Source of the DNA: a virus
Taxonomy: Duplodnaviria; Caudoviricetes
Strand: one strand, 5' to 3'
IMG/VR virus record: IMGVR_UViG_3300044699_000125
Coordinates: 1 to 56,752 of that record
DNA length: 56,752 nucleotides
The notes beneath the pieces are model-generated. The model had not been told where the DNA came from. It ran no database searches and saw only the letters and a list, made by a program, of their open reading frames with translations. Positions 1 through 53,993 of this stretch are shown here, one piece after another. How positions within the stretch are numbered: the first letter of the stretch is position 1; every line of letters starts with the position of its first letter. The translations under genes and the position numbers were made by a program.

Positions 1-12
1 AGGAGCCACACT

Positions 13-406
13 ATGAAGAACCAATTGTCACCGAGCATCGCTGTACTTGCTGCCATCGAAGCACTGCGTACCCGTCTGGATATGCTGGAGACGGAAGTGA
101 ATCGGGCCACTGCCGAGTATTGCCCCCTCGGCATCAGCAACGAGTTGCAACACTCTGTGGTCCCCGGCAAGGACGGTGTCCTCATCGTCGAAAACGTGGA
201 GTACCTACAGCGAGGCCACAGAGGACGACGATGGCACCAAGCGCACCGTCGGAGACTCCTGCATCGCTCTGGCCTACGGGCTGCTGTACGGCATCGCCGC
301 AGACACCCACGAGAGCCTCACCCACAAGCTGTACGACTTGGGTTACCTGCAAGACGACGTCGGCCCCACCGACGACGCCGAGTGGGAATTCGAGAACAAC
401 GTCTAG
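13..406 (+). CDS. Hypothetical early protein (one apparent frameshift near 205)
   Basis: AGGAG RBS and ATG at 13; continues in the frame of ORF 176..406 (acidic C-terminus), whose TAG is part of the next RBS. Confidence 0.6.
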
Positions 407-414
407 GAGCCGAC

Positions 415-555
415 ATGAACGAACAACAGGAAGCACAGCAGAAACGTGACGCATGGGTGTGGCGGGAGGCGCAGCGCAGCGCCAACGAGAACGCCATCGC
501 CATCGGCATCATCATCTTCACCTTGCTTAACTGTCTCTACTATTTCACTCGCTAG
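415..555 (+). CDS. Small membrane protein
   Basis: TAGGAGCC RBS, ATG 415, MNEQQEAQ...AIAIGIIIFTLLNCLYYFTR hydrophobic tail. Confidence 0.7.
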   Translation: MNEQQEAQQKRDAWVWREAQRSANENAIAIGIIIFTLLNCLYYFTR

Positions 556-563
556 GAGCCAAC

Positions 564-746
564 ATGCGCAAGAACGAGCATCCGAGTTGCGGCTGTGACC
601 AGTGCCGCCGTGGTATCCGCACCGATCACGGACACTTCGTGGTCAAGTACGTCAACCGCAAGCTGCGCCGTCTGTACCGAGAGGCGCTGCGCACCAAACC
701 TGACGAGGTGGTACAGATCATCGTCTCCACCCCGTACACGGACTAA
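564..746 (+). CDS. Small hypothetical protein with CxCxxC
   Basis: TAGGAGCC RBS; 60-aa ORF. Confidence 0.7.
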   Translation: MRKNEHPSCGCDQCRRGIRTDHGHFVVKYVNRKLRRLYREALRTKPDEVVQIIVSTPYTD

Positions 747-957: not shown

Positions 958-986
958 TTGACACACCTGTTGACACCATGTAGCAT
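958..986 (+). promoter_or_regulatory. Sigma-70 promoter
   Basis: TTGACA (958-963), 17 bp, TAGCAT (981-986), upstream of the RBS at 1001. Confidence 0.75.
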
Positions 987-1011
987 TCGCAACCTTTACT
1001 GGGAGCCACCT

Positions 1012-1473
1012 ATGAAGATGATAACGTGAACACCGGACGGAGACACTCTGTTCCGCATGGAAGCATACCTGCACCAAGATCGGGAATCAGCAGCCCTACT
1101 TCTCGATCACCGGCAGCGAGTACGAGAAGGGTCTGTGGGTGAGCGGCGGTTGTCTGCACGAAACCATCCTCACCATCTGGCCGGACCTCAAGCCCATCGT
1201 GACCTGCACCTCTCGAACATGGACGGCGTACCCATGCACGCTGCCGAGAACGGCTGGTACTGGGCCGGTGGCACCAAGTGGCAGCAAGCCGAGCCAGTCT
1301 TCCTCAAGAAGCACCTGCGCTGTGGCGAGGGCATGGTGCGAACCATGATCGGACTGGCAGCACGCGGCGACCGACTGACCTTCGACCGCATGGTCGAGAA
1401 CATGAAGCCTCTGTGGAAGGAGGAGGCCGAGCAGGTCATCACGCAATTCCAACTGACCATCAACGAAGACTAG
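1012..1473 (+). CDS. Hypothetical protein (frameshifted 5' half)
   Basis: GGGAGCC RBS and ATG at 1012; pieces GGCLHETILTIWPDLKPIV and LHLSNMDGVPMHAAENGWYW lie in adjacent frames. Confidence 0.6.
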
Positions 1474-1481
1474 GAGCCAAC

Positions 1482-1913
1482 ATGGAACATGCGGAAAAGG
1501 CCAAGCGCATCGGGCCGAGGACGTACCTCTACAGAGGCGTGAAGTTTGAGCGTGACATGGGCACCGCCCATGGCTACTGGGGTGCGTGGCGCACCACCGG
1601 CTACATCGGCAACGGCGAACTGCGAGCCGGGTCCATGAGCCGGATCATGCACGACATCGACCGCCACCTCGTCGTCCATGCCGAACAGATCGCCGCAGCC
1701 AACGAGCAAGCCGCCAGCTACGAGCGCCAGCGCCAAGCACACAGAGACGCCATCGACAGTGTGATAGGCAGGATGGTGCACGGGGTGTGGGTGGCCGGAA
1801 AGCTGGTGGCGGTGCTGCCCGACGCCGGGGCGGCGTGCCTCAAGGCATCACAGACCCCGAGCGGCGTGTATGGGGAAATCATGTGGGAAGCGATCAAGAG
1901 GGAGACGCTATGA
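1482..1913 (+). CDS. Hypothetical protein
   Basis: TAGGAGCC RBS; MEHAEKAKRIG... portion of ORF 1278..1913. Confidence 0.7.
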   Translation: MEHAEKAKRIGPRTYLYRGVKFERDMGTAHGYWGAWRTTGYIGNGELRAGSMSRIMHDIDRHLVVHAEQIAAANEQAASYERQRQAHRDAIDSVIGRMVHGVWVAGKLVAVLPDAGAACLKASQTPSGVYGEIMWEAIKRETL

Positions 1914-2509: not shown

Positions 2510-2526
2510 TTCACAGGGAGCCACCC

Positions 2527-2955
2527 ATGAAAATCATCATCGCAATTCTGCTGTTCGTAACACCTCTGTTGGCGCACGCCGAGAAGCTGGTCAGCATCTT
2601 CTCATCCGCCGACGGCAACACTCGCTCATGCTGACGTCGAGTCGTTCTCCTACGAGAAGGATAACGGCGGGTTCTACATGGCCCGTATGTACGCCTACCA
2701 CAAGGGCGAGCGCACCAACCACTTCGTATCGGTCACCCCAACCGAGTGCGGCAAGGGAGCCGGAACGCTCATCATCACCACCGACAACAAGAAGGGGGCA
2801 GCGTCTACGCATGGTCGCTGTACGACGCGAAGGACGCCAAGAGCGGGCAGGGTTCCGATCATGTCGGCGTGGGTCTGTGCATGTTGGGGGGCGAGATCAC
2901 CCCCGAGCTTGAGATCAGGCCCGCCAGCAACAGCAAGCCGAAGCTGTCTCTGTAA
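2527..2955 (+). CDS. Signal-peptide protein (frameshifted)
   Basis: GGGAGCCACCC RBS; MKIIIAILLFVTPLLAHA signal peptide; continues through ORFs 2678.. and 2746..2955. Confidence 0.6.
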
Positions 2956-3336: not shown

Positions 3337-3379
3337 AAAAGGTGAGGCCCGATCAACCCACGGGGGGTAACCGGGCCTC
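3337..3379 (-). terminator. Intrinsic terminator-like hairpin
   Basis: GAGGCCCG...CGGGCCTC inverted repeat followed by ACCTTTT on the minus strand (short U-tract). Confidence 0.55.
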
Positions 3380-3412
3380 GTACTGCACCTCTAGGAGCCA
3401 CCCAGAGAGTGC
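3337..3412 (-). ncRNA. Candidate trans-acting antisense sRNA (anti-RBS)
   Basis: Own promoter (3417-3445), hairpin 3385-3412 with UGGCU loop, second hairpin 3344-3379 followed by UUUU; contains UGGGUGGCUCCUAG, complementary to the repeated RBS motif. Confidence 0.65.
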
Positions 3413-3416
3413 GGCA

Positions 3417-3445
3417 ATAGTAGCCAAGGATTGCAGGTCATGCAA
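3417..3445 (-). promoter_or_regulatory. Sigma-70 promoter for the candidate sRNA
   Basis: Minus strand TTGCAT (3445-3440), 17 bp, TACTAT (3422-3417); predicted +1 at 3410-3412. Confidence 0.65.
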
Positions 3446-3513
3446 GCAACGCCCGCAGGGCACCCGAGACGTTCATCGGGCTTCGCTCTGTGCTGGCTGT
3501 TTCCCCTTTGTAA

Positions 3514-3858
3514 TCACGGAGTCACCCCGAGCGTTATGTCCCCGGTCGCCCACAGTTGGGCGAACGTCACGCACACGAACTCGAACTGGGAGCCGTACTT
3601 CTCCTCCCACTCCGGCACGCTGGCGTGCAACTCGTCGTGGTGCGCCCTGCACAGAGGGATCGTCCAGATGTCCGGCGACTTGGTCCCGGCCCCTTTGTAG
3701 CCAGCCCCATGCGGATGGTGCGGGTCCGACGGCGCTGGCGCGTCACAGACGCAGCACGGCAACGCCCGCACCGCCGCCATGTACTTCTCCGAGCGCACAG
3801 AGGCATAGCCAAGCTTGAGCGCCTCGCGGAACGACAGCCCCGGCGGGATCGGCTTCAT
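3514..3858 (-). CDS. DUF968-like HNH/zinc-binding nuclease
   Basis: VRALPCCVC...DPHH...GTKSPD...IPLCRAHHDELH. Confidence 0.8.
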   Translation of the reverse strand: MKPIPPGLSFREALKLGYASVRSEKYMAAVRALPCCVCDAPAPSDPHHPHGAGYKGAGTKSPDIWTIPLCRAHHDELHASVPEWEEKYGSQFEFVCVTFAQLWATGDITLGVTP

Positions 3859-6976: not shown

Positions 6977-8448
6977 GCGTACTTCCTCTGTTTCTCTCTC
7001 GCCTTGATGCGGCGAATGCGCGCCGCGAGGACGTCGTTCTTGACCTCCGACGTCGGTGCGGTAGCGAACCAATGCAGGTCCTTCTCCGGGAAGCGACCGA
7101 ACTTCTGCTTGTAGGCCCAGCCTGCCCATCCCGGCTTGTACTGTTTGGCGAGGCAGATCGAGATCAGCCCCGAGTAGTAAAGCTGTCGCCCTGCGTGCGA
7201 GCGCACCTCGCGCTTCAACTCGTGGAGGGTTCCCTCCTGCTGTTCGAGCGAGAACGGGGGCGGCGTCACCGTGTACCCGCACACGCACACCGTAGGCTTG
7301 TAACGGGTGACCGCCTTACACTTCGGACACAGGTACATGCGCAACTTGGGATCGGTCTTCTTCTTCGGCTCCCCCATGTCCAGCTTGAGCGGCATCGGGT
7401 CGGTGAGGAAACCGAGACGCTCGACCGTGTCGCTGTGGTCGAGGATCAGCGCGTGGCTCTTGCCGGGAGCGGGACGCAGTGCGCGTCCGGCCATCTGCAC
7501 ATAGCGAGTGAGCGACTGGGTGGGTCGCGCCAGCACGATGCAGTCGAGCGCCGGGAGGTTGAAGCCCTCGGCCAGCACTGCACAGTTGGTCACCACCTTG
7601 GTCTGTCCGCTGCGCAAGCGGTCGAGGATGTCGATGCGATCCTGCGGCTTGGTGTTGCAGTCGATATGCTCTGTTGGGATGCGGCGGAAGTTGAACTGCT
7701 CACAGATGTGCTTGCTGTGCGCAATGGAGGTGGCGAACACGATGGTGCGACCCCCGTTGGCACGCTTCATCCACTCGTCGCACAGATTCGCCACGAGCGG
7801 GACTCTGTTGACCGCTGACTCCAACTCTAGCTCGTTCCAGTCGCCAGCGAGAGTGTGGACCTTGGACAAATCGGGTCTATCAGGGGCGAAGTAGCGGGCC
7901 GGTACCAGCCATCCCCCATCGGTGAGCGAGGTCACCGTCTCGGTGTGCACGAGGGTGTCGAACACCTTGCCAAGCCCACGGCTGAATGGCGTGGCAGTGA
8001 GTCCGTACACCTGCACCGGGTTGTCGGTGAGGAACTTGCGGTACATGGGCGCGATGGCCCCGTGCGCCTCGTCGATGATGATGACGTCGAGTCCGGGGTT
8101 GAACTTGCGCCGGTTGATGGTCTGGATGCTGGCGATCTGCGTCGGCTCGTACGGATCGGTGCGCTCGTGCTTGGCTTGCAGCACGCCGTGACTGAGGCCG
8201 TGTTCGAGGAAGCGGTCGGAGGTCTGTTGGATCAGGTCGATGCGATTCACGCACCACGTCACGCGCTGCCCTCGCTTGAGTAGCTGCTGCACGAGGTACA
8301 TGCCCTGCTCCGTCTTGCCGCTGCCGGTCGGTCCATAAATACAGACGCGCCGGTGTGTGCGTGATGCTTCGTACGCTGCTCGCATCAGCGTCCACTGGTA
8401 CGGACGCAACACGATCTTGCGAATGGCGGGTGACTCTCCATCTGGCAT
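6973..8448 (-). CDS. SF2 DEAH-box helicase with C-terminal zinc finger (RadD-like)
   Basis: LRPYQ, GPTGSGKT, DEAH, GLTATP, EGFN, QMAGRALR, CPKC; AGGAGCCACC RBS at 8449-8458. Confidence 0.95.
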   Translation of the reverse strand: MPDGESPAIRKIVLRPYQWTLMRAAYEASRTHRRVCIYGPTGSGKTEQGMYLVQQLLKRGQRVTWCVNRIDLIQQTSDRFLEHGLSHGVLQAKHERTDPYEPTQIASIQTINRRKFNPGLDVIIIDEAHGAIAPMYRKFLTDNPVQVYGLTATPFSRGLGKVFDTLVHTETVTSLTDGGWLVPARYFAPDRPDLSKVHTLAGDWNELELESAVNRVPLVANLCDEWMKRANGGRTIVFATSIAHSKHICEQFNFRRIPTEHIDCNTKPQDRIDILDRLRSGQTKVVTNCAVLAEGFNLPALDCIVLARPTQSLTRYVQMAGRALRPAPGKSHALILDHSDTVERLGFLTDPMPLKLDMGEPKKKTDPKLRMYLCPKCKAVTRYKPTVCVCGYTVTPPPFSLEQQEGTLHELKREVRSHAGRQLYYSGLISICLAKQYKPGWAGWAYKQKFGRFPEKDLHWFATAPTSEVKNDVLAARIRRIKAREKQRKYA

Positions 8449-8493
8449 GGTGGCTCCTGTCGTCTCCACGGTTCCGCGTGGTCGGGTGGTGAT

Positions 8494-9321: not shown

Positions 9322-9363
9322 GCGGTTGCTGCACCCCGTTTTCACTCTTAACTAGGAGCCAAT

Positions 9364-10140
9364 ATGGCTGGCGATCCGCCTGTTGAACCCGTTGTTTCGC
9401 TCGACGTTCCCCACACCCCGCTGGTCGAGTGGCACGACCATCCCCCCGGCATCCGGGTGGACGATGGCACCCCGCAGTTCTCCACCTCCCCCACCTTCTC
9501 CAAGCTGGCCTCTGCACTGGCCCGTGTGCAGAAGCTGCTGAAGCAGCCGTCGAAGGGGGCCGACAACCCGTTCTTCAAGAGCAAGTATGCGGACCTGCAC
9601 GACGTGTGGAGCGCAGTGCGGGGGCACCTCTCGGACGAGGGGATTGCCGTCGTCCAGTCGCCGTCGTTCTCGACCGCCGAGATCAAGGGCAAGGTGGTCG
9701 GGATTATCACCATCAGCACCACGATAATCCACGGTGATAGCGGGGAGTGGATGACCAACGTGCTGCGCGGCACCTCCGAGAGCATCGGCCCGCAAGCCAT
9801 CGGTAGCGCGATCAGCTACTTCCGCCGCTACAGCATCCAGCCGCTGCTGATGCTGACCCCGGACGACGGCAGCGACGACGACGCCGAGAAGGCCGAGGGC
9901 CGCGCTCCGCCCGCCGACGACAAGCCGACCCCCGAGGAGATCGACAAGACCACCAAGGACATCAAGGCGGCGGACAGCAACGTCAAGCTGAAGGCCGTGT
10001 ACTTGGGCATCCCCGACGCCCACAAGAAGTTCTTCACCAAGCTGGTGAATGCTCGCAAGGCGGCGCTGGAGAAGGCCGAGGCACAGAGCGAACCCGAGTC
10101 CAGCCAGACCCCGGCGAGCGATGGCACAGGTCACGAGTGA
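9364..10140 (+). CDS. erf: ERF-family ssDNA-annealing protein
   Basis: LASALARVQ...NPFFKSKYADL...GSAISYFRRYSI...DDDAE. Confidence 0.92.
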   Translation: MAGDPPVEPVVSLDVPHTPLVEWHDHPPGIRVDDGTPQFSTSPTFSKLASALARVQKLLKQPSKGADNPFFKSKYADLHDVWSAVRGHLSDEGIAVVQSPSFSTAEIKGKVVGIITISTTIIHGDSGEWMTNVLRGTSESIGPQAIGSAISYFRRYSIQPLLMLTPDDGSDDDAEKAEGRAPPADDKPTPEEIDKTTKDIKAADSNVKLKAVYLGIPDAHKKFFTKLVNARKAALEKAEAQSEPESSQTPASDGTGHE

Positions 10141-11960: not shown

Positions 11961-12224
11961 ATGGCGAAGACCGCGCAGCAGAAGCGTTCGGACAAGGCAT
12001 ACGCCGCACGCCCCGAGCAGATACAGAACCGGGTGGAGCGCAACACCGCTCGCCGCAGGGCCATGGCTGCTGGACTGGTGCACAAGGGTGACGGGAAGGA
12101 AATCGACCACAAGACCCCGCTCATCAAGGGTGGGAGCAACGCGAAGTCCAACCAGCGCATCATCGACGCCGAGAAGAATCGGGCGTGGCGCAGGGGTAAA
12201 AGCGGGAAGGCGCTTCCCGATTAG
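11961..12224 (+). CDS. Small HNH-motif protein
   Basis: RNTARR...KGDGKEIDHKTPL.KGGSN..SN.R......NR. Confidence 0.8.
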   Translation: MAKTAQQKRSDKAYAARPEQIQNRVERNTARRRAMAAGLVHKGDGKEIDHKTPLIKGGSNAKSNQRIIDAEKNRAWRRGKSGKALPD

Positions 12225-12233
12225 GAGCCACAG

Positions 12234-12500
12234 ATGGACAAGGTCATTACCCGCATCGAAGTTGCGGAACAGGCGGTCGAACAGCAATTCAACGCTGTAG
12301 CCGACCCCGAGTTGTGTGCGGGCCTCTCGTACGCAGCCTTCATCCTCCGCCAAACCCGCTTCCTAGCCCTGCATCTTGGCAAGGCCGAGGCGGATGGCGA
12401 GTTGACGCCCAAGCTGCTGGAGCAGGCGGCTAGGCACATCATCACGATGGCGAGCGTACTGCACACCCCCGCCAAACCGACTCTGTCGGTCGTGAAGTAG
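12234..12500 (+). CDS. Hypothetical protein
   Basis: TAGGAGCCAC RBS, 88 aa. Confidence 0.7.
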   Translation: MDKVITRIEVAEQAVEQQFNAVADPELCAGLSYAAFILRQTRFLALHLGKAEADGELTPKLLEQAARHIITMASVLHTPAKPTLSVVK

Positions 12501-12536: not shown

Positions 12537-12577
12537 CGATGTGTCAACACCCGTTGTCTAACCATAGGAGCCACCCA

Positions 12578-13408
12578 ATGGACATCGAAGTGTCCGTCGA
12601 GAAGATCAGCCCCGCCAAGGCTGAGAAGATGCTCAACACCAATTGCAGCAACCGCACCCTGCGTGAGGGCATCGTCGAGAAGTACGCCGACGACATGCGC
12701 AAGGGCCAGTGGACGAAGTGCATCGCCCCGATTGCCTTCTACGAGGATGGGGACGTTGCTGACGGGCAGCACCGTCTGTGGGCCATCATCGAATCCGGCG
12801 AAACCCACGAATTCATGGTGGTGCGTGGCCTCGACCGCGAGTCGGGACTCAACATCGACGTCGGTCTGCCCCGGTCGCTGGTGGACAACGCTCGCATCAG
12901 CGGGGTCAACGAGCATCTGTCGAACCGGATCATCGCTGTTGCCCGTGTGGTCGCCACCGGCCAGCGCGGCAGCCGCTCCCCCAAGGGTGTGAGCAACGCG
13001 GTCAAGCTGGCCTATGTGGACAAGTACAACGAGTGCGTTCGCTGGGCCATCGAGAACGCTCCGGCGGGGCGCACCTTCTCCCACTCGCTGGTGCTGGGTG
13101 CCATGGCCCGTGCCTACATGGTCGAGGAGGATAAGGCGCGTCTGGCCCGCTTTGGTGAGGTGCTGTCCAAGGGCTTCATGGCCGACGAGAGGGACTCCGC
13201 CGCCATCGCCATGCGCAACTACCTGATGGTGGCCGCGAAGACCGGGTTCAGCCATCAGGACGTGTGGCAGGACACCTTCCTCAAGACCCAGAACGCGATC
13301 AAGCACTTCATGCGTAGCAAGCGACTAACCCAGATCAAGTCTGTGCGGGAAGAGGCGTACCCGTTGCCGACGGCCAAGGTGACCAAACTGAAGAAGAAGG
13401 CGGCGTGA
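12578..13408 (+). CDS. ParB/Srx-like (DGQHR) domain protein
   Basis: ISPAKAEKML..N..NR.L....V.KYADDM..G.W...DGQHRL.AI. Confidence 0.8.
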   Translation: MDIEVSVEKISPAKAEKMLNTNCSNRTLREGIVEKYADDMRKGQWTKCIAPIAFYEDGDVADGQHRLWAIIESGETHEFMVVRGLDRESGLNIDVGLPRSLVDNARISGVNEHLSNRIIAVARVVATGQRGSRSPKGVSNAVKLAYVDKYNECVRWAIENAPAGRTFSHSLVLGAMARAYMVEEDKARLARFGEVLSKGFMADERDSAAIAMRNYLMVAAKTGFSHQDVWQDTFLKTQNAIKHFMRSKRLTQIKSVREEAYPLPTAKVTKLKKKAA

Positions 13409-15287: not shown

Positions 15288-15370
15288 CGTCGATCCACTT
15301 TACAGTCGCCGCCGGAAATTATGGGGGAATCACATAAAATCATGTGATTGCGAAGTGGTCCCGGAATTGC
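15288..15370 (+). promoter_or_regulatory. Sigma-54 promoter with upstream activator box and IHF-like site
   Basis: CGT-N11-ACA (CGTCGATCCACTTTACA, 15288-15304); AATCATGTGATTG (15338-15350); TGG-N10-GC (TGGTCCCGGAATTGC, 15356-15370). Confidence 0.7.
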
Positions 15371-15409
15371 TTACCTGCTGGGGCAACACCAACCAACAAG
15401 GGGAGTCCC

Positions 15410-16129
15410 ATGAAGAAACTGTTCCTCGCCGCCATGCTGGCCCTGTTCTCGGCCCCGGCGGTGGCTACGCTGCAACTGGCCGCTGACATCAACGGCACCA
15501 TCTTCACCTGCGTCGATCAGGCGGCGTGCGACACCAACCTCGCGCCGAACCAACTGGCGATTGCCGACCAGACCATCAACGGCGTGCGGATCGTCGGCTC
15601 CTCGCAGATCGCATTCGCGGGCGGGCTGAACTTCCTCAACACGTCGTCGTTCCAGATCGTCAACCTGACGCAAGCGGCGCGCACGGTCATCCTCGCCATC
15701 AGCGGAATCGACTTCGAGGGACCGGCCAATGGCTTCGATGCCAGCGGCAGCGGCACCTTCCAGAACGCCGTCGGATCGACCATCAACCTGTCGTTCTACG
15801 CTGACCCGGCGAACCAGCAAGGCGCGGACACGCCGAACGACCTGCCGGGGCTGCAACTGGCGACGTTCGCGGATGTGGCGACGACGCTGGCGGATGCGTT
15901 CGCGTTCAACAGCAATGGCCCGTTCACCTCCCCCGGCGCGTTCAGCATGTCGCTGGGCACCGTCGGCACGTTTGCGGCGTGGAACGGGATCGTGGGTCAG
16001 GAGCCGACGCTCGTCGGTCGCAGCCAGACGCTGCTGATCCCGCAAGCGATCCCCGAACCGGGCACGCTGGCGCTGCTGGGCCTCGGGCTGTTCGGCCTCG
16101 GCTTCATGCGGCTGCGTCGGGCCAAGTAA
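15410..16129 (+). CDS. PEP-CTERM sorting-domain protein 1 (phage-encoded)
   Basis: Signal peptide MKKLFLAAMLALFSAPAVA; C-terminal IPEPGTLALLGLGLFGLGFMRLRRAK. Confidence 0.95.
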   Translation: MKKLFLAAMLALFSAPAVATLQLAADINGTIFTCVDQAACDTNLAPNQLAIADQTINGVRIVGSSQIAFAGGLNFLNTSSFQIVNLTQAARTVILAISGIDFEGPANGFDASGSGTFQNAVGSTINLSFYADPANQQGADTPNDLPGLQLATFADVATTLADAFAFNSNGPFTSPGAFSMSLGTVGTFAAWNGIVGQEPTLVGRSQTLLIPQAIPEPGTLALLGLGLFGLGFMRLRRAK

Positions 16130-16145
16130 CGAGCATCGCAGCACC

Positions 16146-16178
16146 GGGGGCATCCGCAATGGGTGCCCCCTTCTTTTT
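16146..16178 (+). terminator. Intrinsic terminator between the two PEP-CTERM genes
   Basis: GGGGGCATCC-GCAAT-GGGTGCCCCC followed by TTCTTTTT. Confidence 0.8.
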
Positions 16179-16192
16179 CCAAGGGAGCCTCT

Positions 16193-16873
16193 GTGAATCG
16201 TATCCTCGTACTCGTAATGGGACTGCTGCTGGCCGCGTCTGTTAGCGCCGGTCCCACCTACACCTTCGTCACCAGTCAAGGCGTCAATCCGTCCAACGTC
16301 GGCACCATCACCCTCACCCAGATCAGCCCGTCCACGGTCAACATCCTTGTCGATTTGTTTGACACTGCGCTGCCGCTGCCCCGCTACGGGTTTATGAACA
16401 CCGGCGGGCCGCACATCCCGTTCGCGTTCACCGTGGCAGGGCTGGAGGCGGGGCTGACCATCAGCGACTTCATCCAGCCGGAGGACGGCGACTACACGCT
16501 CGGTCTGTTCACGCTGAACACGGGCGGCGGTGAGGCCACGCCGTTCGGCACCTACGGGGTGGCGATTGACAGCGACGCGGGCAACGGCTCTGTGAACGCC
16601 TACTACGGCGATCTGGAGTTCAACCTGACCCGCCCTTCGGGTCTGTCCACGGATGACTTCATCATCGGCCCGCTGGCGCTTGCCTACTTCGCGGCGGACC
16701 TCACCGACGGCGGATCGAACACCGGCTCGCAGGCGTGGCTGATCCGCACCGTACCCGGCACGCCGAACCCGCAGGCGGTCGTTCCCGAACCGGGCACGCT
16801 CGCTCTGTTGGCGTTGGGTTTGGCTGGACTGGCGCTGCGTCGGCGTCACCAGCGGGCGGACACCGTCTTGTAG
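16193..16873 (+). CDS. PEP-CTERM sorting-domain protein 2 (phage-encoded)
   Basis: GGGAG RBS and GTG start; signal peptide; VPEPGTLALLALGLAGLALRRR. Confidence 0.93.
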   Translation: MNRILVLVMGLLLAASVSAGPTYTFVTSQGVNPSNVGTITLTQISPSTVNILVDLFDTALPLPRYGFMNTGGPHIPFAFTVAGLEAGLTISDFIQPEDGDYTLGLFTLNTGGGEATPFGTYGVAIDSDAGNGSVNAYYGDLEFNLTRPSGLSTDDFIIGPLALAYFAADLTDGGSNTGSQAWLIRTVPGTPNPQAVVPEPGTLALLALGLAGLALRRRHQRADTVL

Positions 16874-19800
16874 GTCAGCAGCATCTTGTTGTTGAGCGTC
16901 TCGATCCGGTCGTCGATGCGGTTGATCTCCGCCGTCTCGTTGGGCACCTTGATCTTCCCATCGACGATCCCCGCCTTGCGCTTCTGTAAATCACCCACAG
17001 TCTTGCTATGTGCGGTGAACGTCGCGCTCACTCCGGCCCAGCCCGGATGCTCCTTCGCCAACTCTGTGCGATCCGCGTAGTCCCCGTTCTTCATCACGTT
17101 CTGGAACTCGCGGATTTCATTCTTGGCGGTCTGTAATTCCTCGTACACCTTGCCCTTGCTCGGCTCCGACACCACCCGCCGCACGAACGGGTAGTTCTTC
17201 ACCTCTGTGCGCTCGTCGGCGAGGATTTTGAATCCGGTGTCGGTGGCCTTGTAAGCCGCCGTCGGCAGCCCCGGCAACAGAGTTGCGGCGATGAAGTCCA
17301 CGGTGTCCGGGTTGATGTCGATGGCACCCGCCTTCGCTGCCGAACCGCCGGTTACAGAGTTGAGAGTCGAGGTGATGACCTTGGAGGTCTTGCTCGCGCC
17401 GAGGCTGCCCATGGCCGAGTCCGGTTGCTTGGGTCCGAAGTGAGTGTCCTGTGTGCGCGCGATCTTGCTGCCGAACGTGTTCTCGTTCATGGCGAGCGCG
17501 AGGATCGGATCGAGCGCCGTTGGCGTCACGGTCTTCATCACCCGGCCCCACGCTTCCTTGGAGTCGGAGCCGCCGCCCAGAGGGTTGAACGCCTGCCCGC
17601 CCGCCTTCATCGACGAGAACACGGCGTCCTGCACAGAGCGCCCGAAGAAGGTGTCCGCCATGTAGTTGCCCGCTGCGTAGAACGCATTCCACCCGTACGG
17701 AAGCGGAATCTTCGGCCCGTGCGCAAACGGGATCAGATTGGTGGCTCTGTCCCAGTCGCTCAACTGCTGGTAGTCGGGGATGCCGTTCTCGTCCTCGTCG
17801 CCACCCGAGTTGCCGGTGAGTCCGGCCACGAAGCCCATGCCGAACAGAGACACGGCGATGGCCTTGCCCTGCGGCGTCTGTATCGCTTGCCACAGACGGG
17901 CCGTGCCCTGCACCGCCGGGTTGAAGAACAGGTACAGAGACGACAGAGCTTGCGAGGAACCCTTGCGGTTGAAGTTCACGGTCAGGTTCTTGGCGTAGTC
18001 GGCGGCGTCCGCCTTCGACCACCCGTTCTCGCGCAGCACCTTGTACGCGGCCACGCGCGGCACCGCCTCCACCGCCGCGTTGGCGTCCTCCAGCCAGTCC
18101 ACGATGCCTTTGGCGTGCGACTGCTCGTAGTACGTCCGCACCTTGCCCTTGATGCCGCCACGACCCTGTAAACGGTCCTCCATGCTCTTCAGCTTGGCTG
18201 CCCGATCCTCCAGCGTCTCCAGCCCGAAGAACTTGGTGATGCCGCCTTCCTTCTCCAGTTCCTGATACCACTTGCCCAGCCCCACCGGATGGTCGGGATC
18301 GGTGAGCGCCTTCTTGATGTCTCTGTGTCCCTTCAGCGCCAGAATCTCCTTCACCACCGCCTTGCCCATTCCCGGCGGCAGCGTCTTGTCGGAGGCTATG
18401 TTGAAGTACGCCGTCTGTGCGTCGCGGGCCGCGTTGATGATCGACCACTCGGGATTGAGCGTGGTCATCATCATGGCGAGGAACTTGTTGAATTTGCGGG
18501 CCGTTTCCAACAGAGCGGTGCCGCCGGAGGCGTTCGCCCCGACCATCGCCTGTGCGAACTGGTCGTCCTTCAACTCGATCTGTATTGCGCGCCCGTTCTT
18601 GAACGCCGTCAGCACGTTGGGATTCATCACCCCGTTGTCGGCTTGGTAGCGGATGGCACCCGTCTCGGGGTCGAAGGTCTGCCGTGCCTTCTGTGGATTC
18701 AGCACCCAGAACTTGGGATCGGGATGGTCGCGCGCCAACTCCGCCAGCGACAGCGTCACCTCGTTCTTCCCTGCTCGCACGATCTTCGCTTCCGCGTCCA
18801 GTAGCATGTGCGAGATGTTGTTGCTCGAATCGGTGTCCCGGCCCGTCGCGTACTTCAACAGAGACGCCTTGCCGGAGAACCCAGCACCCACACCCAGCCC
18901 CGACGTGATCTCTGTGGTGTCGTCCGGGTCCAGTCCCTTCAGCGGACGGTAGTGCTTGTACTGGCGCAGGCCCGCCGCGTCGTCGGCGTCGATCAGCCCA
19001 CTCGACTCCATCAGCGCGACCTTGAACTCGGACACGTCGTCGGCGATCTTGCCGATAGCCTGAAGCTCGGCGTAGTACGGCAGGCTCTGTACGGCCTGCA
19101 ACAGATTGTTGGCGTCCCCCGTGGTCATGCCGGAGCCGTCCACCTTCAGCCCGCCGGTGCGCTGCTCGATGCGGTCGTTGCGCTCCTCCGCGTGCTGGGA
19201 GACGAGGAACTGCTCGATGTCGCGCAGCGTGGCACCCTTCGACAGAGCCTTCTCCAGTTGCTCTTCCATCGGCTCCACAAACTTGCGCTTGAACTCGTCC
19301 AGCTTGGCCCCGGTCTTGCCAGCGAACAGAGTGATCTTCTGGTACAGATTGTTATCGACCGAGATGATCCCGCCCTTCTTCAACAGATCGGTCATCAACC
19401 GGCGCACGTCGAGGAACGAGTCCTGCGTGGCCCTCTGTATCGAGGCCCGGAGTTCGGGACCACGGTTGTAACCGATCCGACTCAGCGTAGCGTCGATGGC
19501 CTTGGTGAAGGCGTTGGTGCCCTTCTGGGGCGAGATGTCGATGTCGAACAGAGCATCGGGTCCCTTCCCCCAGACGTCGTGCTGGCCCTCGTCGAACACC
19601 GTCTCCTTGCGCCGCACCAGCCGCACGCCCTTCTCGCGCAACTGGTCGATGGCGTCCGCCGTGGTGGCCGCCTGCCCCTCGGTGTAATCCTCGCGGATGT
19701 CGCCGCCGGGGAGCGCCTTGAACACGAACCACGCTTGCGCAGGGGCGTTGTAGGTCGCCATGCCGACGATCTTGTTGCCCTTCATCGCGTAGACCTCGAC

Positions 19801-22800
19801 CGGGTTCAGCAGGTCCTTGCGCGAGAACAGGATGCGGCCACGGCTGCGCACCGGCTCCGTCTCCGGCACAGAGTCCTTGGCCCGCGCCTCGGCCCGGTCG
19901 TAACCGTTGCGCCCGTACTGCTTGGCCTCGCTCTTGTCGTACGGCTCCGCCGCACCCTCGCCGTAGACCATCCACACCACGTCGGGTCGGCCACCGTTCC
20001 ACTCGCTCTGTGCTTTCTCGTCCCAGCCTGCCGGAGCGTACTCATCGTTGAACGGCATCTGTGACACGGCATGGAAACCAGAGGCGGCAAACAGGTCGGC
20101 AGCGTAGGTGTCGTATGTTGACAGCCAGCGTCCGCCCATCTGTGTCGCGGCGTGCATCATCGACACCGAGACGGACTTCAGGTTGTCCGGGCCGCGCTTC
20201 GGCAGGGTCTTGAATACAGAGACGATCTCGCCGTCGGGCTTGATGGCGAACCCAGCCTTGCCGTCCTGCGTGAGGAACATCCGCATCCCGTCGTAGCCGA
20301 TCCCGTAGCGGGTGCTGACCGGGTCGTAGACGGTGATGTGCTGCCCATCCGCGCCCTGCGACTCCATGGCCTGAAGCACGCGCTCGCGGAATTCCATCGC
20401 GGCCTCGTGCGTCGGCGCGAGTTCGTGCAGCGGCGGCGTTGCCACCCCCGCGTGTTCCATCGCGTTGACGTACTTCTGGTCCGGCGTGTACGTCTCGATC
20501 ACATGCTCAAGGAACGAGTCGTCAGCCCTTACATCCGCTCTAAGACCCTTGCTACCTCGGCTTCGGTAAGCTCGGGGTGATTGGTACGGAGACTTTGTCG
20601 CATCATATTTTGAATGGGTGAGAGAAAGCTCTCGGGCGACTTCGGCCCTAGCAAACTTTCGCCTTTGAGACTCTGTGAGACTGCCCTGTCGAACTCCTCC
20701 GCGCTCGGAAGCTGGCCGAGATTGAACTCCTGCGGTGCCTCCAGATCGGGCAGCGAATTTCTGTCCTGCGGGGGTATCGAGGAATCGCTGGACTGCTTTT
20801 TCGTAGTCATTCGGTTCACCCTTGGTGCTGGTCGCGTTGTGGTTCGCGTACAGGTCCTTCTCCGGGAACCACAGGATGGCCTGCACGTCGCCGGGAAGAA
20901 TCTTCTCGCCCACGCGCGTACGGTTCACCAGCTTCAGCGCCTGCTGCACAGTGTCGCGGATGTTGTTGCGGTGGGTGCCGCCGGTGGGCTGGTCGTTCAT
21001 CGGCGACTCGTCCCACGTCCGGGCTGCCGACGACAGTTCGGTCTTCTTGTCGTAGTCCTCGTTGGCCCACGCCTTGTGCACCCTCTGTGCCAGCGGGTAC
21101 ACGTCGTCGTCGCTCATGCGGTCGAGTTCGGCGACCTCATCCTTGGTGATGCCGAATCGTTCCAGTTGCTCGGGCTTCGCGCTTCTCAATTCTTCCCGGA
21201 AACGTGACGCCTGCTTCAGGTCCAGTTCGAGGTCCTCGTTCAACAGAGAACCGGTGAGGCGACCGATGGTTCGCATGAACCACCGGTCCATGGTCAGCGG
21301 CTGGTAGTTCTCGTTCAGGTTCTGGTAGAACGCTCCGCCCACCTTGGGGCCGAACATGGCCGACCCGTGCACCACGGTGTCCGCCAACTCGCCGGTGGCG
21401 GGGATGCCCATCCGGTTCATCTGTGCGGCGGTGTACTTGGTGTTCAGGAAGCTGGCGAACAGATCGGGACCGTACCGCTGGATCATGTCGTTGGCGGCGT
21501 TGAACGCCTTCACCATCTGTTGCGCTTCGCGTCCGTTGCCGCCGACGAGGAACAGCCCCTTGTCTCTGTAATACGCATACGTCTCAAACGCCATGGCGAC
21601 GTTGGCGTCGGTATCGTTGCCGTTGCTGGTGATTGCCAGCGCCAGCGTGAACATGGAGCGGTCTGTGGGATTGCTCGCCACCTCCGGGTACACGTTGCCG
21701 ACCAACTTCAACCCGGCTTCCAGTTGATCCCGGAACCACTTGGCAGACGACGCCTTGCGCTTCAGCCCCGCCTTGATCTCCCTCGCCATCAGGGTGGCGA
21801 TCTGTGCCCGGTCACCCTCGTTGGCGATGTTGAGCCTGCGTCCGAGGATGGCGCGAGCGCGAGCCTGAATCGCCTTGGCGAAGCTGATCTGGTTGCCGCG
21901 CGGGGTCTTCTCGAAGTCGTGCAGCGTCTCGCCCTTGTCCAACAGAGGAATCAGGGTCGGGTCATCCGTCGGCTTGTACTTGCCGATGGCGCGCAGCACC
22001 TTCGCCTCCGCGTCGTTGGCGGCCTTGCCCAGCGTCGAGCGCGACTGGCGGATGTCGGGATTGGTGGTGCTGAACTCGCCGCTGTTGCCGATGGCCGACT
22101 TCACCTGATTGGCCTCGTACACAGCGAGGTTCTTGCGACCGGCTTCCTTCTGGTAGAAGGCGTCGTGCCCGTTGGTGCGGATGGCTTCCTGCACCACCGG
22201 ACTCTCGATGGTCGTCCAGATGCCCATCTCGATCTCGCGCATCAACTGCTTGACGCCCATCTTCTCTGTGTTGCGGTTGACGTCCAGCACGTCGAAGGTG
22301 CCGTCCTCGTTGGCGAAGTAGTTCTGCAACGTCGCCTGCAACAGATCACGGTCCTTCTTCTTGTCGAAGTCGAACGGGTACTCGGCCTTGACGTACAGAG
22401 GGTACATGCGCGGCTTGGCGTTCCTGCGCGCCTTGGCCGCCTCGGTGCCCTGCTCCTTGTTCTTCTCGCCCTTCATCCAGCTAACAGAGGTGAAGGCGAA
22501 GTCCTCGGCGAAGTTGATGTCGTCGGTGAGGAAGATGGCCCCGGCCTGCTTCTGCCGGAACTCGCTGATGATGCGTGCGGTGCCGTGGTACATGACCTTC
22601 GGCTCGCCATTCTTATCGACGATCTGGCTCTTGCCGAACCACAGCTTGAACGCAGGCGTGTCGGTCTGCCCGGTCAACTCGTTGATGGCGTAGTCGATCT
22701 CGAACCCGTAGTCGCCATCCACGTTCATGTACGGCGTGCCGAACGCGGCCTTGGAGCGCGACAGCCGGATGTCACCCAGCAGGCGGCGCACCAGCGGACG

Positions 22801-25800
22801 GATCACCGCAGGCAGCTTCTGCACAGAGGCCGGGTCGCGCAGCGCGTCGTTGACCAGTTGCCGGAACTGCTTCGTCTCGGCGTCCGACAACTCCTTCACG
22901 TTGTACAGAGCGGCGACCTTCTTCTGGTCGAGCGCGGTCATGTTCTCCATGCGCTCCACGATCTGCGGCCAGTCGCGCTCCATCCGCTCCTTCATCACCT
23001 CCATCTGCCGGTGGTCGCGGGCGGCGAGTTCCTTCGCCTTCATCTCGGCGGCGTCCTTCTCCCGCTTCTCCTTCAGCGCGCGGTTCTGTTCCTTGGTGAT
23101 GGCAGCGACCCGCTTCTGCTCGGCGGTCATGTTCGCTTCGCCGACCGCACGCCACGCCATGATTTCCTTGTACGCGGTCTGTGGGCTGACCTTGCCGCCC
23201 TTCTTCGCGTCGTACAGAGAGCGGATCATGTAGTTCTTGTGATCCGGCGATAGCTCGCTGAAGTCGGGATCACCCTCGGCGGTAGCAAGGTTCTGGTCCC
23301 ACTCCACAGCGGCCTTCTCGTAGTCGCGGGTGTGCCGCGTGGTGCCCTGCTCCGCTTCCGGCAGGCGCTCGGCGCTGGTGATGCTGTTGACCTCGTAGAA
23401 CGAGTGCATCAACTCGGCGGCGTTGATCTCGCCGCTGATGTAATCCTCGTAGTCCTCGACGAATCGCTTCTGTGCACCCTTGGTCAGCATCGTCCACGGG
23501 AACTGACCTTCGTCCGGGTCCGGCTCGCCCTTGTTCTCGTACCACGCGGCGGCCTCGGAGCGAAGCTCGACCTCGGTGCGGATGTCGGGGTCCTTCCTGA
23601 ACTGCACCAACAGATTCTTGACCGCTATGTTGACCTGCCGCAGGTCGTTGAACAGAGCGCGTTCCTCGCCCGTCTTCTTGACGTTGGGGTCGGCGACCAC
23701 CGACTTCAGTGCGCGCAGCAGCGACTGCAACATCGCCACCACCTCGTCCATCATGCGCAGCACGATGGGCTTGTCCTTGGGCGCGACGTTCTGCATCAGC
23801 ATTTCCCAGAACTCCGGGGACTGGAATGCCGTGCCCATCGCGTCGGCTGACCACTCTTCCTGCGTCAGCGCGCCGATCTCCGCCATCGACGGTCGCGTCT
23901 CGTTGCGCGCCTGCGCCTCCGCCTCCAGCGTGCGCTTCAGCTTGTAGACGTACTCCTTGTACGCCTTGTTGTTCGACAGGCCGATGACGACCTGCTCGAA
24001 GTCCTTCCACAGACGCGGGTTCAACTCCCGGATGTTGTGGCCGAATTCGTGACCGACGAGGAACGCCCACGGCTTGCTGGCGTTGACGTTGATGTAGATC
24101 GTCTCCCGGTCGCCGGGAATCTTGAACCCATCCTCGCCAGTGTTCTTCTCTGTGGGCGAGTAGAACTGGATGCGCTGTCCGAACAGCGCGTCCATCCACT
24201 TCGCCATGTTCTCGTAATTCTTCGGCGTCTCGACCAGCGTGACAGGCGGGCGATCCACGTCGCGAGGTACTCGTTAGTGAGGGTCTGGCGCTCGGCCATG
24301 GTGCTGTCGGGCCTGATCTTGCGCTGCTCGGGTGCGAGCTTGGAGGCACGGGCGATGCGCTTGCGCAGGTTCTTGAGGGCGAGGTCGCGCTGCTCCTGCT
24401 GCTCGGCGCGCTTCTCCTCCGGCGTCCTCTGTGGCTTGGGCGGCGTGTGGGTGGCACCCACCCCGGCGGCGCGCTGCTCGGGTGTCTGCCCCGGCGTGAA
24501 CTCGTCCTGCACCCGCAACAGCACACGGGTGTTGGTGTCGCCGCGCTTGAGCGCGATCTTCTGCACAGAGCCGTCCGCGCTGTGCAACTCGACGCGAGCG
24601 AGAGCCTTCCCGTCCGGCGTTGACCACGACTTGAACTGGACCGGGTTGTCGTCGGCATCGACACCCTCGATTACCAGCGACGGTTCTACCTTCCCCTTCC
24701 TTGCCTTTTTCTCTGTGCCACCTTCGGCAGGCTTCTGCCCTTGCTTGCCTGATTCCACTCGGCGACGTTCACCCCCTGCTTCTCCATCTTCTCCCGGTTC
24801 GCGTTGAAGAACTTCTGCTGCGCCTTGCTCTTGTACGGCATTCTCGTCTCCCAGTCGGCGTAGCGCCTTGGCGATTGCGTTGGTCTGCTTGGGCGTGAAG
24901 ACCCGGTCGCCGACCTTCACACCCTCGGCGGTCATCAACAGAGGCAGGTCCTGATCCTTGTAGCGGAAGGTGCCGTCGCCGAAGTAGATCAACTCGGGAT
25001 CGACCTTGGTCACCCGCAGGCCGACGGCGTCCCGCCCCATCTTGTGGCTGGCTTCCTTCGCCTTCTTGGCGGCAGCCGTCTCCTTCTTCTCCGCCTTCGC
25101 AGGCTTGGCAACCTCTGTTGACAGAGAAGATTTCTTATCTTCGCCCTTCTTCTCTTTTCGTTTCCTATCTTTCTCCTTACTTACCGCTTTGGCAGCCTTG
25201 GCGGCAGGCGGCTCCTCTGTAACCGGAGCGACGACGGCGGCCTTGGCAATCGCCGCAGGCTCGGTGGCAATCGCCGCAGGCCGACCGCTGTACGCGCCCA
25301 GCCTTCCGTGCCAACGCAGCGCGCTCCCGGCGTCGATCCCGGCGGGGAGGTGCGGCTGGATCGCCTTGGCGAATGCCTTGGCGGAGTCCTCGGCGGCCTT
25401 GTACAGAGCCGGGTCGTTCGACTTCGAGGCAGCCTTCTGCTTGGCGACAGCTTCGTCGGCGAGCGTCACCACGTCCTTCGGCACCGACCCCCATGCCTGC
25501 TCCAGCGCCGCTGCCTTCTGCTGCACCCCGGTCAGTTCGGTCTGGACCTTGGCCTGCCGCTCGGCCAGCGCATCCGGGATGGTCTGGACGTCGGTAACGC
25601 CTCCCGGCGGCGTCTGCGCAGCGACCGCAGCGGTGTTGGGACCGGCGAGCGGCGTGGCGGCTTGGGCGACCACGTTGCCAGCCGCATCCTTGGCCGATAC
25701 TGCGACCGGGAGGCCGGGGCCGGTGGCGACCTCGGACTTCGACTCGGGGATGTCGAGGAACGCCGCGCGCTGCTTGTCTGTGATCTTCTTCAGCCCCCGG

Positions 25801-49889: not shown

Positions 49890-51019
49890 TTATTCATGTG
49901 ACAACGATAACCGATGACGGCAATGACGCCCAGCGCGAAGGTGCTGCTGACCCGGAACATCCCCGGCGACACCTTCACCGATTCCGCGGCGCTCGGCGGC
50001 CCTTCGCTGGCGATGCTGTGCAAGCAGCGCAGGCGCCGCGCCCCCACGGACCGACCTCGGCGAGGCGCAAGGTCGATGCTCGTGAAATCCTGCCAGACCG
50101 CGCCGCGGATCCTCATACCCGACTGGACAGCTCGCTCAGACCGCGCAGGACAGGATCCGCCGAGTGCTTGAGCACCGGCAGAGGGACCATCGCGCATGCG
50201 ATGTCCGGATTAAACACCGCGGTCGGCGGCGCGCCTGAGGCGGAGCAACCACTCGAGTTGGCCACGATGCGGGGCGATTTCATCCAGGCGCCGACTCGAC
50301 GATCGTACTGATCGTCGTCGGCAAGCTGAGCGCGCGCCCGCGCGCGCGGAAGCTGGTGAGCGTCGCTTCTGTAATCGAGGGCTGGACGGTTCCTGACATG
50401 TAGGCGATCCGCCGGTGGCCCATAGCCGCAGGTACTCGACCGCGGTGCGGCCGAATCGGTCGTCGTCGAACCGTTGAGCAATTGGCACGGGCCCGCGGGT
50501 GCCAGTGACCTGTGGTCGCCGAACGCGATCACCGCCCGGCAGTCCGCCCGGGCGCAGGCGCTCGAGGTTTCGGTCGCATCGCCGGGGCCGTAGATGAGCC
50601 ACCCCCATCGATACGCCGAGCGCCAGGTGTTTCGGTGGGTGGCGGTTGGTTGGTGAGACGTCGACGCGATTCCAATCGCCGGGGCGGCTCCCCGCGCGGA
50701 CGACAACAACGTCGAGTCGCGTTTGGAGAGCTCCAGTTCGGCGCCACGCATCATCTCGAGGCACGCCGGGTCCAGTCGCGCGTCGGAATCACCGACGTAC
50801 AGGAGCCCGACCTGCTCGACTGTATTCAGGCGGTGCGTCGAGCGGGGCGCGCGCCAGCCGCCGGCCGGCCTGGTTGGCGACGAAGCCGAGGCGCCGCGCG
50901 GCCTCTTGCACTCGGCGCCGGGTTTCGGCGCTGTAGCGCGTGTCGTTGCGGTGCAGGACGTGAGAAACTGAGCGGAAGTCCAAGCCGGTTTCGCGGGCGA
51001 TGTCCTTGAGGGTTGCCAT
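49890..51019 (-). CDS. LacI-family regulator (multiple frameshifts; 3' end approximate)
   Basis: MATLKDIARETGLDFRSVSHVL...YSAETRRRVQEAARRLGF; sensor-domain pieces in shifted frames. Confidence 0.8.
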
Positions 51020-51025
51020 TTCCCG

Positions 51026-51065
51026 ATTCCGAACGTTCGGATCATACATTCCGAACGTTCGGAAT
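51026..51065. promoter_or_regulatory. Tandem palindromic LacI-type operators
   Basis: TCCGAACGTTCGGA (51028-51041) and ATTCCGAACGTTCGGAAT (51048-51065), 22-bp period, central CG. Confidence 0.8.
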
Positions 51066-51131
51066 TGCAAGGAAAATTGCCCGCGCAGCGCCCGCCAATC
51101 ACTCGGGTCTATCTGCTTTTGCTCGCTTGTC

Positions 51132-51909: not shown

Positions 51910-51920
51910 GACATCACCTC

Positions 51921-53839: not shown

Positions 53840-53993
53840 GCGGCTAGCTTACCCTTGCGACGCACCGCGTTCAAGCAAAAAATGCAATATGTGTTGCACA
53901 CAAAAGAACCACAGAACCGGCCGTTTAGATGCACAGATTCGGCAAATTACAGATCGTGTTGCGGAAAGCGGCTGCTCAGCAACTCGGGGCGGG

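Follow-up and report, generated by a model that had tools for sequence, protein, structure and literature searches.

A conserved minus-strand promoter-hairpin unit carries the complement of an extended ribosome-binding motif in a small clade of uncultured phages

Introduction

The start-associated sequence (SAS) of Cluster K mycobacteriophages is a 13-bp element with the consensus GGGATAGGAGCCC, located 3-7 bp before start codons that are ATG in 80 of 93 cases (Pope et al., 2011, PMC3203893). SAS has been known since 2011, and its function was still called unknown in 2024-2025 (PMC11373665; PMC12699233). As far as the accessible portions of these reports go, whether its partner is an RNA or a protein was explicitly left open (PMC3203893), and no proposal of an antisense RNA for SAS was found in the partial texts covered by a limited literature search. 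Here, a locus with a comparable motif is described in the virus record IMGVR_UViG_3300044699_000125, the whole of which (56,752 bp, GC 63.6%) is referred to as the window. A minus-strand unit at 3337-3445, composed of promoter-like hexamers and two hairpins, carries the exact reverse complement of an extended ribosome-binding site (RBS) motif that precedes about ten of the phage's own genes, and it is tentatively read as the gene of a small RNA directed against these start regions.

Phage antisense RNAs of the RBS-blocking type include P22 Sar, P4 CI and lambda OOP. At the protein level, RegA of phage T4 represses the translation of many early mRNAs at their start regions. Among host bacteria, the small RNAs RsaE/RoxS and RNAIII use C-rich loops or single-stranded C/U-rich stretches to pair with the GGAG-type Shine-Dalgarno (SD) sequences of many mRNAs. 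The c4 RNA of P1 and P7 is a further phage antisense RNA that blocks an RBS, according to the accessible part of a 2025 review (PMC12197685). The limited search mentioned above, which again covered parts of the texts, gave no account of a phage RNA directed at a start-associated motif common to many genes.

The extended ribosome-binding motif and the unit that complements it

In the window, the motif (c)TAGGAGCCAc sits 4-8 nt ahead of the start codons of about ten non-structural genes, and its sites are confined to 1-12.6 kb. The GCCA(C) portion of this motif mismatches the canonical bacterial anti-SD tail. The string TAGGAGCC is found in seven copies, all on the plus strand, compared with 0.68 expected, and none of 100 shuffled sequences reached seven. 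Six of these copies are placed 5-7 nt ahead of an ATG, and the seventh is the copy within the hairpin (3392-3399). The TAG within TAGGAGCC serves as the stop codon of the upstream open reading frame (ORF) in four of the seven copies (404-406, 553-555, 1471-1473 and 12222-12224). Such copies make compact stop-RBS-start junctions, like those reported for the SAS of Cluster K.

An earlier sequence-only reading had described a minus-strand unit made of TTGCAT, a 17-nt spacer, TACTAT, two hairpins and UUUU, and all of these parts are present. Hairpin 1 has the layout GCAC-U-CUCUGGG / UGGCU / CCUAGAG-GUGC (3412-3385, minus strand). Its core is the exact reverse complement of the extended RBS motif and its loop UGGCU matches AGCCA of that motif, both as originally read. 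The core 15-mer has one copy in the whole window, and this copy is start-less. The sequence-only reading saw no ATG at normal spacing after this copy; a GTG does exist 11 nt past its GGAG, opening a mere 3-codon ORF. The 86-nt stretch 3415-3330 on the minus strand folds with -49 kcal/mol (z = -4.5), and none of 200 shuffled sequences was as stable. The unit had no match in Rfam 15 at gathering score; the best sub-threshold match was Pxr (18.8 bits versus a gathering score of 80, E = 0.53). A coding explanation was rejected, in that the TAG at 3392 ends no ORF and the ORFs lying over the hairpin vary in frame and sequence among relatives.

The best reading of the locus, held tentatively and at somewhat less than an even chance, is that of a minus-strand anti-RBS small RNA that lowers translation of the motif-bearing gene class. 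The unit would then be a non-coding RNA gene whose sigma-70-type promoter would set the transcription start at the base of hairpin 1, around 3410-3412. The predicted RNA, with its end at a GC-rich hairpin and a U tract, would measure about 75 nt in the window and about 165 nt in G001, a complete relative, and read-through transcripts of the leftward replication operon would probably carry the same RNA segment at their 3' end. The loop of its 5' hairpin would expose UGGCU and the 3' arm CCUAG, which combine into the complement of the phage's extended SD motif, CUAGGAGCCA. Pairing over 9-13 nt would hide the SD and the spacer at about ten non-structural start regions in the window and about 20 in G001. 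It would act in trans, in competition with the 16S rRNA tail, so that translation of the whole class would be lowered together, while the late structural genes, which are motif-free, would escape. The effect would be repression rather than activation, and it may serve early or middle gene shut-off or immunity.

Conservation in related phages

Relatives were found in IMG/VR and Joint Genome Institute (JGI) metagenomes via the flanking DUF968 gene and a 4-sequence helicase alignment. They include G001 (61.5 kb, with terminal repeats, rated complete), G002 (12.6 kb), G005 (31.7 kb), the 2.1-kb contig L056 and shorter fragments, and their helicases are 57-59% identical to that of the window. Five distinct versions of the unit are available, namely those of the window, L001 = L057 (G005), L002 = L059 = L060 (G002), L003 = L061 (G001) and L056, and motif counts given for four genomes refer to the window, G001, G002 and G005. 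Looking for the unit in related contigs, as the sequence-only reading had proposed, thus yielded it in four further distinct relatives that share the motif.

The 15-nt core is invariant in all five sequences, in contrast to the variable lower stem, linker and downstream hairpins. Every genome that spans the region holds one conserved promoter-hairpin unit with the exact motif complement, and start-less copies of the 15-mer number exactly one per genome in the four genomes, this copy being the hairpin. Across IMG/VR the exact 15-mer has 37 matches, of which three are relevant and correspond to the relatives; the other 34 are unrelated, mostly one conserved coding sequence. A chance arrangement devoid of function could draw on the facts that GC-rich genomes fold well and hold many weak promoter-like strings, and that the window hexamers match the consensus at 7 of 12 positions. 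Nevertheless, given the invariance of the core over five diverged genomes, the excess of TAGGAGCC over expectation and the fold z-score of the unit, chance is very unlikely and can be granted only a marginal probability. By the comparison of these sequences, the unit is a real, selected element in a small phage clade that shares an extended RBS motif.

The motif itself has been surveyed across the same clade. The four genomes contain 53 GGAGCC(A/G) start sites, of which 46 are ATG starts. A spacer of 4-8 nt separates GGAG from the start codon, and the consensus is (c/a)(c/a)TA-GGAGCCA-C-c-c, whose flanks are G-poor. Relatives of the window carry the motif on 8-23 genes apiece, and its sites precede non-homologous genes in non-structural regions; in G001, 14 motif genes stand in a row. 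CCA follows GGAG in 6/21, 15/32, 7/15 and 3/12 of the GGAG-type ATG starts in the four genomes, which far exceeds the few per cent expected. Among 80 helicase loci, the motif is frequent only in the six whose helicases are 57-60% identical to that of the window. These six are the three known relatives and L087-L089, short contigs that have GGAGCCA start sites and do not extend to the element. In the remaining 74 of the 80 loci, which are more distant (identity 44% or less), the motif is absent, and more distant relatives are without the element as well.

Conservation is also seen in the promoter-like region. Within the 30-column promoter span of the five-sequence alignment, eight columns are invariant, and six of these eight are the TTG of the -35 and the T, A and final T of the -10 (hypergeometric P = 4.7e-05, a post hoc value from related sequences and hence an indication rather than proof). 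These positions are the most conserved ones of sigma-70 promoters. Four sequences have 17 nt between -35 and -10 and the fifth has 18, and the TTG holds its distance to the -10, not to the ATG of a neighbouring helix-turn-helix (HTH) gene, from which L002 is off by one base relative to L003 and L056. In a scan at 9/12, the hexamer pair of the unit was the sole promoter-like match within 500 nt in L061 and in L056, compared with 0.1 expected. Moreover, the minus-strand form of hairpin 1 is the more stable one in all five sequences, with -17.8 (window), -13.3, -17.3, -8.9 and -10.6 kcal/mol against -11.5 (window), -8.7, -11.7, -5.8 and -6.2 kcal/mol, in the same order, on the plus strand, because G-U pairs turn into A-C mismatches there.

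The genes around the unit have changed more than the unit. An excisionase-like HTH gene (63-77 aa) lies on the opposite strand in L002, L003 and L056 and shares bases of its ATG with the -35. The small HTH proteins beside the element show 41-42% mutual identity. A DUF2829-like gene is present in L001, L002 and L003. The window lineage lost both the DUF2829-like and the HTH gene and kept the promoter hexamers and the hairpin; L057 is also without the overlapping HTH gene, and the hexamers are kept there as well. The window has undergone a deletion of roughly 0.4-0.5 kb, which stops 2-3 nt beyond the -35 and has removed nearly everything upstream. The lost HTH gene has left behind an RBS motif decayed to AAGGATTG (3426-3433), whereas the hairpin copy is unaltered, which argues against the hairpin copy being a relic.

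These neighbours bear on the possibility of a local device, in which cis-antisense pairing or transcription interference would act on the HTH gene and the end of the early operon, complementarity to other RBSs being incidental. The promoter overlaps the HTH start and the predicted RNA is fully complementary to the HTH leader; in L002, L003 and L056 the HTH RBS shares bases with the spacer and the HTH ATG with the -35. With a short RNA placed where convergent operons meet, the layout also resembles that of lambda OOP and P22 sar. However, the unit is intact in the two of five lineages that have no HTH gene (window and L057), and what is invariant in it coincides exactly with the RBS-motif complement and not with the remaining leader, so that this explanation is regarded as quite improbable.

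Alternatively, the 15-mer may act in the sense (plus) direction or as a binding site, as a decoy, standby or operator copy of the RBS motif. The factor concerned would also read the motifs in mRNAs, like a T4 RegA-type regulator with a high-affinity site; otherwise the copy would be an element of the HTH leader. The copy is oriented as are most motif genes, in L002, L003 and L056 it stands about 30 nt upstream of the HTH RBS and thus within the HTH leader, and in G001 it lies inside the run of 14 consecutive motif-bearing genes. A motif-binding protein would also explain the motif without an RNA partner, an option left open for the SAS of Cluster K in the accessible text (PMC3203893). This alternative is judged unlikely: the element is unchanged where the HTH gene is absent (window, L057), and most sense transcripts in L057 would end ahead of it, at a plus-direction terminator. 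The plus-strand hairpin is the weaker one in 5/5, the conserved TTG / TA...T pattern is left unexplained, and Pfam and PHROGs searches of the window ORFs gave no candidate RNA-binding regulator.

In G002, a second start-less copy of the motif was observed at 3626-3640 of L059, in a hairpin loop (GCGGG / UGGCUCCUAC / CCCGC) about 150 nt downstream of hairpin 1 and on the same strand. On the other strand its TAG ends an 82-aa gene, and the nearest start there is a GTG, 10 nt past the GGAG.

A further explanation sees in the unit nothing more than stabilizing or terminating hairpins at the 3' end of the leftward replication operon, and in the motif copy a leftover gene junction (TAG plus RBS) that was kept for its part in a useful hairpin. 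Junction relics are plausible in view of the four of seven copies whose TAG is an upstream stop, the second copy of G002 stands at a gene end and likewise in a hairpin loop, and there is no further terminator between the DUF968 stop and hairpin 2. Yet a structural hairpin needs no invariant 15-nt sequence next to a freely varying lower stem, and the TAG of the window copy, as said, ends no ORF. The decayed HTH RBS nearby indicates that unused motif copies are not preserved, and the conservation of promoter positions would go unexplained. Such an origin is therefore considered rather improbable.

Predicted pairing with start regions

Start regions are complementary to the hairpin over 9.2-10.5 contiguous nt on average and over 13 nt at most. 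All ten sites named in the sequence-only reading exist and show the 9-13 nt of contiguous complementarity ascribed to them, with two reservations about the genes they serve: ATG 1012 belongs to a 5-codon mini-ORF, the gene itself being at 1057, and ATG 415 is in frame within ORF 13-555. An exact complement of at least 10 nt to the 26-nt hairpin sequence occurs at nine sites on both strands of the window, which are eight start regions and the element itself, and the specificity of long matches for start regions is thereby borne out. Cofold ensemble binding ranged from -1.1 to -12.0 kcal/mol at the ten sites (median about -8) and from -0.2 to -5.0 kcal/mol at 23 control starts (median about -1.6). 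The pairing is thus predicted to be selective but modest.

Two of these start sites have a particular setting. The mini-ORF from ATG 1012 ends at 1029, the next gene begins at 1057, and a promoter-like TTGACA-17-TAGCAT (10/12; 958-986, plus strand) lies upstream of the motif and ATG 1012; the mini-ORF may be a leader peptide or an upstream ORF bearing the motif. ORF 13-555 (plus strand), with its internal in-frame motif and ATG at 415, overlaps ORF 176-406 in another frame. The latter has the higher GC content at third codon positions (0.86), and either of the two may be the true gene.

Weighing the evidence for a small RNA

Several observations weigh against the small-RNA reading, and the first group concerns pairing. 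The control starts of the cofold comparison are crude gene calls, and the listed target at 9364 scores just -1.1 kcal/mol. Net binding is modest because hairpin 1 must open, at a cost of about 18 kcal/mol. Naive duplex scans, whether with the whole RNA or with the hairpin alone, fail to separate start regions from background; they are uninformative because accessibility is ignored and the GC-rich background scores like RBS sites. The commonest RBS flank in G001 (CAGA) mismatches the small RNA, and as a match to the RBS profile the hairpin copy is good and not the best, ranking 7-17 of 54. Seed/RBS covariation in relatives, which the sequence-only reading had put forward as a check, did not materialize. 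RBS flanks and small-RNA flanks show no genome-specific co-variation, because the complementarity lies entirely inside the invariant core, and covariation within hairpin 1 is not significant (11 pairs, one compensatory; 143 of 500 shuffles reach the score), in an alignment of only five sequences with 5 of the 11 pairs inside the invariant core. In addition, shuffled sequences fold as well as hairpin 1 does in L061 (z = +0.37) and in L056 (z = -0.74).

The second group concerns the ends of the transcript. The promoter had been proposed from its hexamers and their 17-nt spacing, which are there; the window hexamers, however, match 7/12 of the sigma-70 consensus and were not reported by the 9/12 promoter scan, nor were those of L057 and L059 (8/12). 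Moreover, in 3/5 the -35 overlaps the opposite-strand HTH ATG, and the spacer is partly the RBS of that gene. As to the terminator, G001 has one on the same strand, a 12-bp stem with T5 about 125 nt downstream (L061 3568-3605). This terminator has an A run on its other flank, at the end of an HNH endonuclease gene, and therefore may act in both directions. The claimed GC-rich hairpin with U tail is likewise present in the window, but ACC and four U follow the stem of hairpin 2, so it falls below the intrinsic-terminator criterion of a GC stem with at least five U directly adjoining and was unreported by the scan. Hairpin 2 of the window is terminator-like, marginal and non-canonical. It could equally terminate the leftward DUF968 operon, where a terminator is needed anyway, and the downstream terminator in L057 points the opposite way. 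A search of sequencing runs gave no RNA run with the sequence and one DNA run with a small share of it.

Genome context

No GenBank phage matched the window (INPHARED, 50,697 records; blastn with 1.1 kb around the element), a scan for tRNA and tmRNA genes gave none, and no Rfam family was found in it. According to Pfam and PHROGs, the unit lies between a variable early region on the plus strand (1-3.3 kb) and a leftward replication operon (3.5-9 kb) that encodes DUF968/HNH-like, CxxCxxCC, superfamily 2 (SF2) helicase and DUF5710 proteins. A rightward operon starting at 9.36 kb encodes ERF, YqaJ exonuclease, T5orf172 and two PEP-CTERM proteins, and the minus strand codes for a 2470-aa polyvalent protein and the structural genes. 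Positions of the motif sites, of the parts of the unit and of the adjoining genes are collected in Table 1.

Table 1. Positions in the window of the unit, the motif-bearing start sites and the adjoining genes or gene remnants.
Feature	Position	Strand	Remark
-35-like hexamer TTGCAT	3440..3445	-	TTG invariant in 5/5 related sequences
-10-like hexamer TACTAT	3417..3422	-	17 nt past the -35; TA...T positions invariant in 5/5
Candidate small RNA, about 75 nt	3337..3412	-	predicted +1 (3410-3412) to U tract; both ends predicted
Hairpin 1	3385..3412	-	11 bp, one bulged U, loop UGGCU
Invariant 15-nt core CTGGGTGGCTCCTAG	3391..3405	-	reverse complement of the RBS motif CTAGGAGCCACCCAG
GC-rich hairpin 2	3379-3344	-	followed by ACC and UUUU (3340-3337); terminator-like for the minus strand
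Motif AGGAGCCACACT, then ATG 13	1..15	+	window begins within the motif
Motif CTAGGAGCCGAC, then ATG 415	403..417	+	TAG is the stop of ORF 176-406
Motif CTAGGAGCCAAC, then ATG 564	552..566	+	TAG is the stop of the ORF ending at 555
Motif CTGGGAGCCACCT, then ATG 1012	999..1029	+	5-codon mini-ORF, downstream of the promoter-like site 958-986
Motif CTAGGAGCCAAC, then ATG 1482	1470..1484	+	TAG is the stop of ORF 1057-1473
Motif CAGGGAGCCACCC, then ATG 2527	2514..2529	+	
Motif ACAGGAGCCACC, then ATG 8448	8446..8460	-	start of the helicase gene
Motif CTAGGAGCCAAT, then ATG 9364	9352..9366	+	start of the ERF recombinase gene
Motif TTAGGAGCCACAG, then ATG 12234	12221..12236	+	TAG is the stop of ORF 11961-12224
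Motif ATAGGAGCCACCCA, then ATG 12578	12564..12580	+	longest hairpin match, 13 nt
Decayed RBS and ATG of the lost HTH gene, AAGGATTGCAGGTCATG	3426..3442	+	
DUF2829-like gene remnant (5' part, 45 nt)	3448..3492	-	gene intact in relatives
DUF968 / HNH-endonuclease-like gene	3514..3858	-	last in the leftward operon; query for finding relatives

The polyvalent protein (16846-24258, minus strand) has ART-PolyVal (ADP-ribosyltransferase) and LPD38 domains and is kept in G001 and G005 with 61-63% identity across about 1000 aa. The two PEP-CTERM proteins are phage-borne (15344-16873). At 50-56.7 kb (50000-56752) there are host-like genes for a LacI-family regulator, DUF1559 and N-terminal methylation motif proteins, without counterpart in the complete relative G001, which hints that the stretch is either flanking host DNA or a set of moron genes. 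Judging from the PEP-CTERM and DUF1559 domains, the host may be Planctomycetota-like or Verrucomicrobiota-like. A search of genome contigs with DUF968 gave just three weak partial matches, in Bacteroidota metagenome-assembled genomes, and no prophage or host. The sequence-only reading had also remarked that no CI-type repressor is visible, and this agrees with Pfam searches of 55 translated ORFs and PHROGs searches of 29 window ORFs, which gave neither a CI-type repressor nor an integrase; the absence is weak evidence because most ORFs are without any match.

Comparison with known systems

The SAS of Cluster K and the motif of the present clade are alike in many respects, as far as the accessible portions of the SAS reports show. 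Both are asymmetric elements of about 13 nt that contain TAGGAGCC and stand a few nucleotides before the starts of a subset of genes. ATG is preferred in both (80/93 for Cluster K SAS, 46/53 for the clade motif), and both precede only non-structural genes, which belong to unrelated families. In both, the TAG is often an upstream stop codon. Conservation of SAS reaches past the part able to pair with 16S rRNA, and that of the clade motif probably does so too, judged by the canonical tail. Each also has one odd copy per genome away from gene starts. The consensus sequences differ, being GGGATAGGAGCCC for SAS and (c)TAGGAGCCAc for the clade. By the criterion of a 13-bp match to GGGATAGGAGCCC with at most two mismatches (Pope et al., 2011; reused in PMC12699233, both in their accessible parts), the window holds no SAS copy, and its motif is therefore an analogue and not a member of SAS. 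At three mismatches there are 11 matches compared with 17.5 expected, none of them at a motif site. The phage lineage, and probably the host phylum, differ from those of Cluster K, and the inverted repeats of the extended SAS (ESAS) of Cluster K were not seen in the clade.

In Mycobacterium phage Anaya, a single reverse SAS was observed in a 10-nt hairpin loop, GCGCGG / CCUCCUAUCC / CCGCGC (L164 29871-29883; JF704106 59870-59882). It is intergenic and lies downstream of an invariant TAGACT, and a 131-nt query around it matched 133 Cluster K records. A reverse SAS in a hairpin loop gives a hint toward anti-motif RNAs arising independently in unrelated lineages. The parallel is weak because the homologous loop of Amgine, in which 13 or more SAS copies are kept, is not anti-SAS, and because some Cluster K records annotate the Anaya-type hairpin region as a coding sequence. 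More generally, SAS-type motifs might be address labels read by phage-encoded anti-motif RNAs, evolved independently in unrelated lineages, that switch 10-20 non-structural genes for timed shut-off or for immunity against related phages; this extension is speculative and rather doubtful. Nevertheless, an unrelated uncultured clade that combines a SAS-like motif with a complementary unit offers the concrete hypothesis, testable at low cost, that the reader of the motif is an RNA and not a protein, and if the mechanism is real, the long-open question of SAS becomes directly testable. If it is false, the element remains unexplained non-coding DNA under strong selection.

Compared with the factors that act on many start regions, the candidate RNA shares with T4 RegA the principle of one factor for many early start regions, RegA being a protein and the present factor a candidate RNA combined with an extended SD motif. 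RsaE/RoxS and RNAIII use the generic SD, whereas the extra GCCA(C) of this clade would limit pairing to the phage gene class. The likeness to c4, Sar, CI and OOP lies in the form of short structured phage RNAs that display in a loop the complement of sequences around an RBS and serve immunity or timing. Such loop-presented complementarity is found here for ten start regions, with UGGCU matching AGCCA, and there is no sequence or Rfam relationship between those RNAs and the unit. Each of them targets one or two sites of a single operon, and most are encoded in cis or cut from the target transcript, whereas the candidate RNA would address about 10-20 dispersed start regions via a shared motif. 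If this is true, a phage small RNA would for the first time be seen to target an entire gene class by way of a common RBS tag, and it would also amount to a natural, programmable translational switch.

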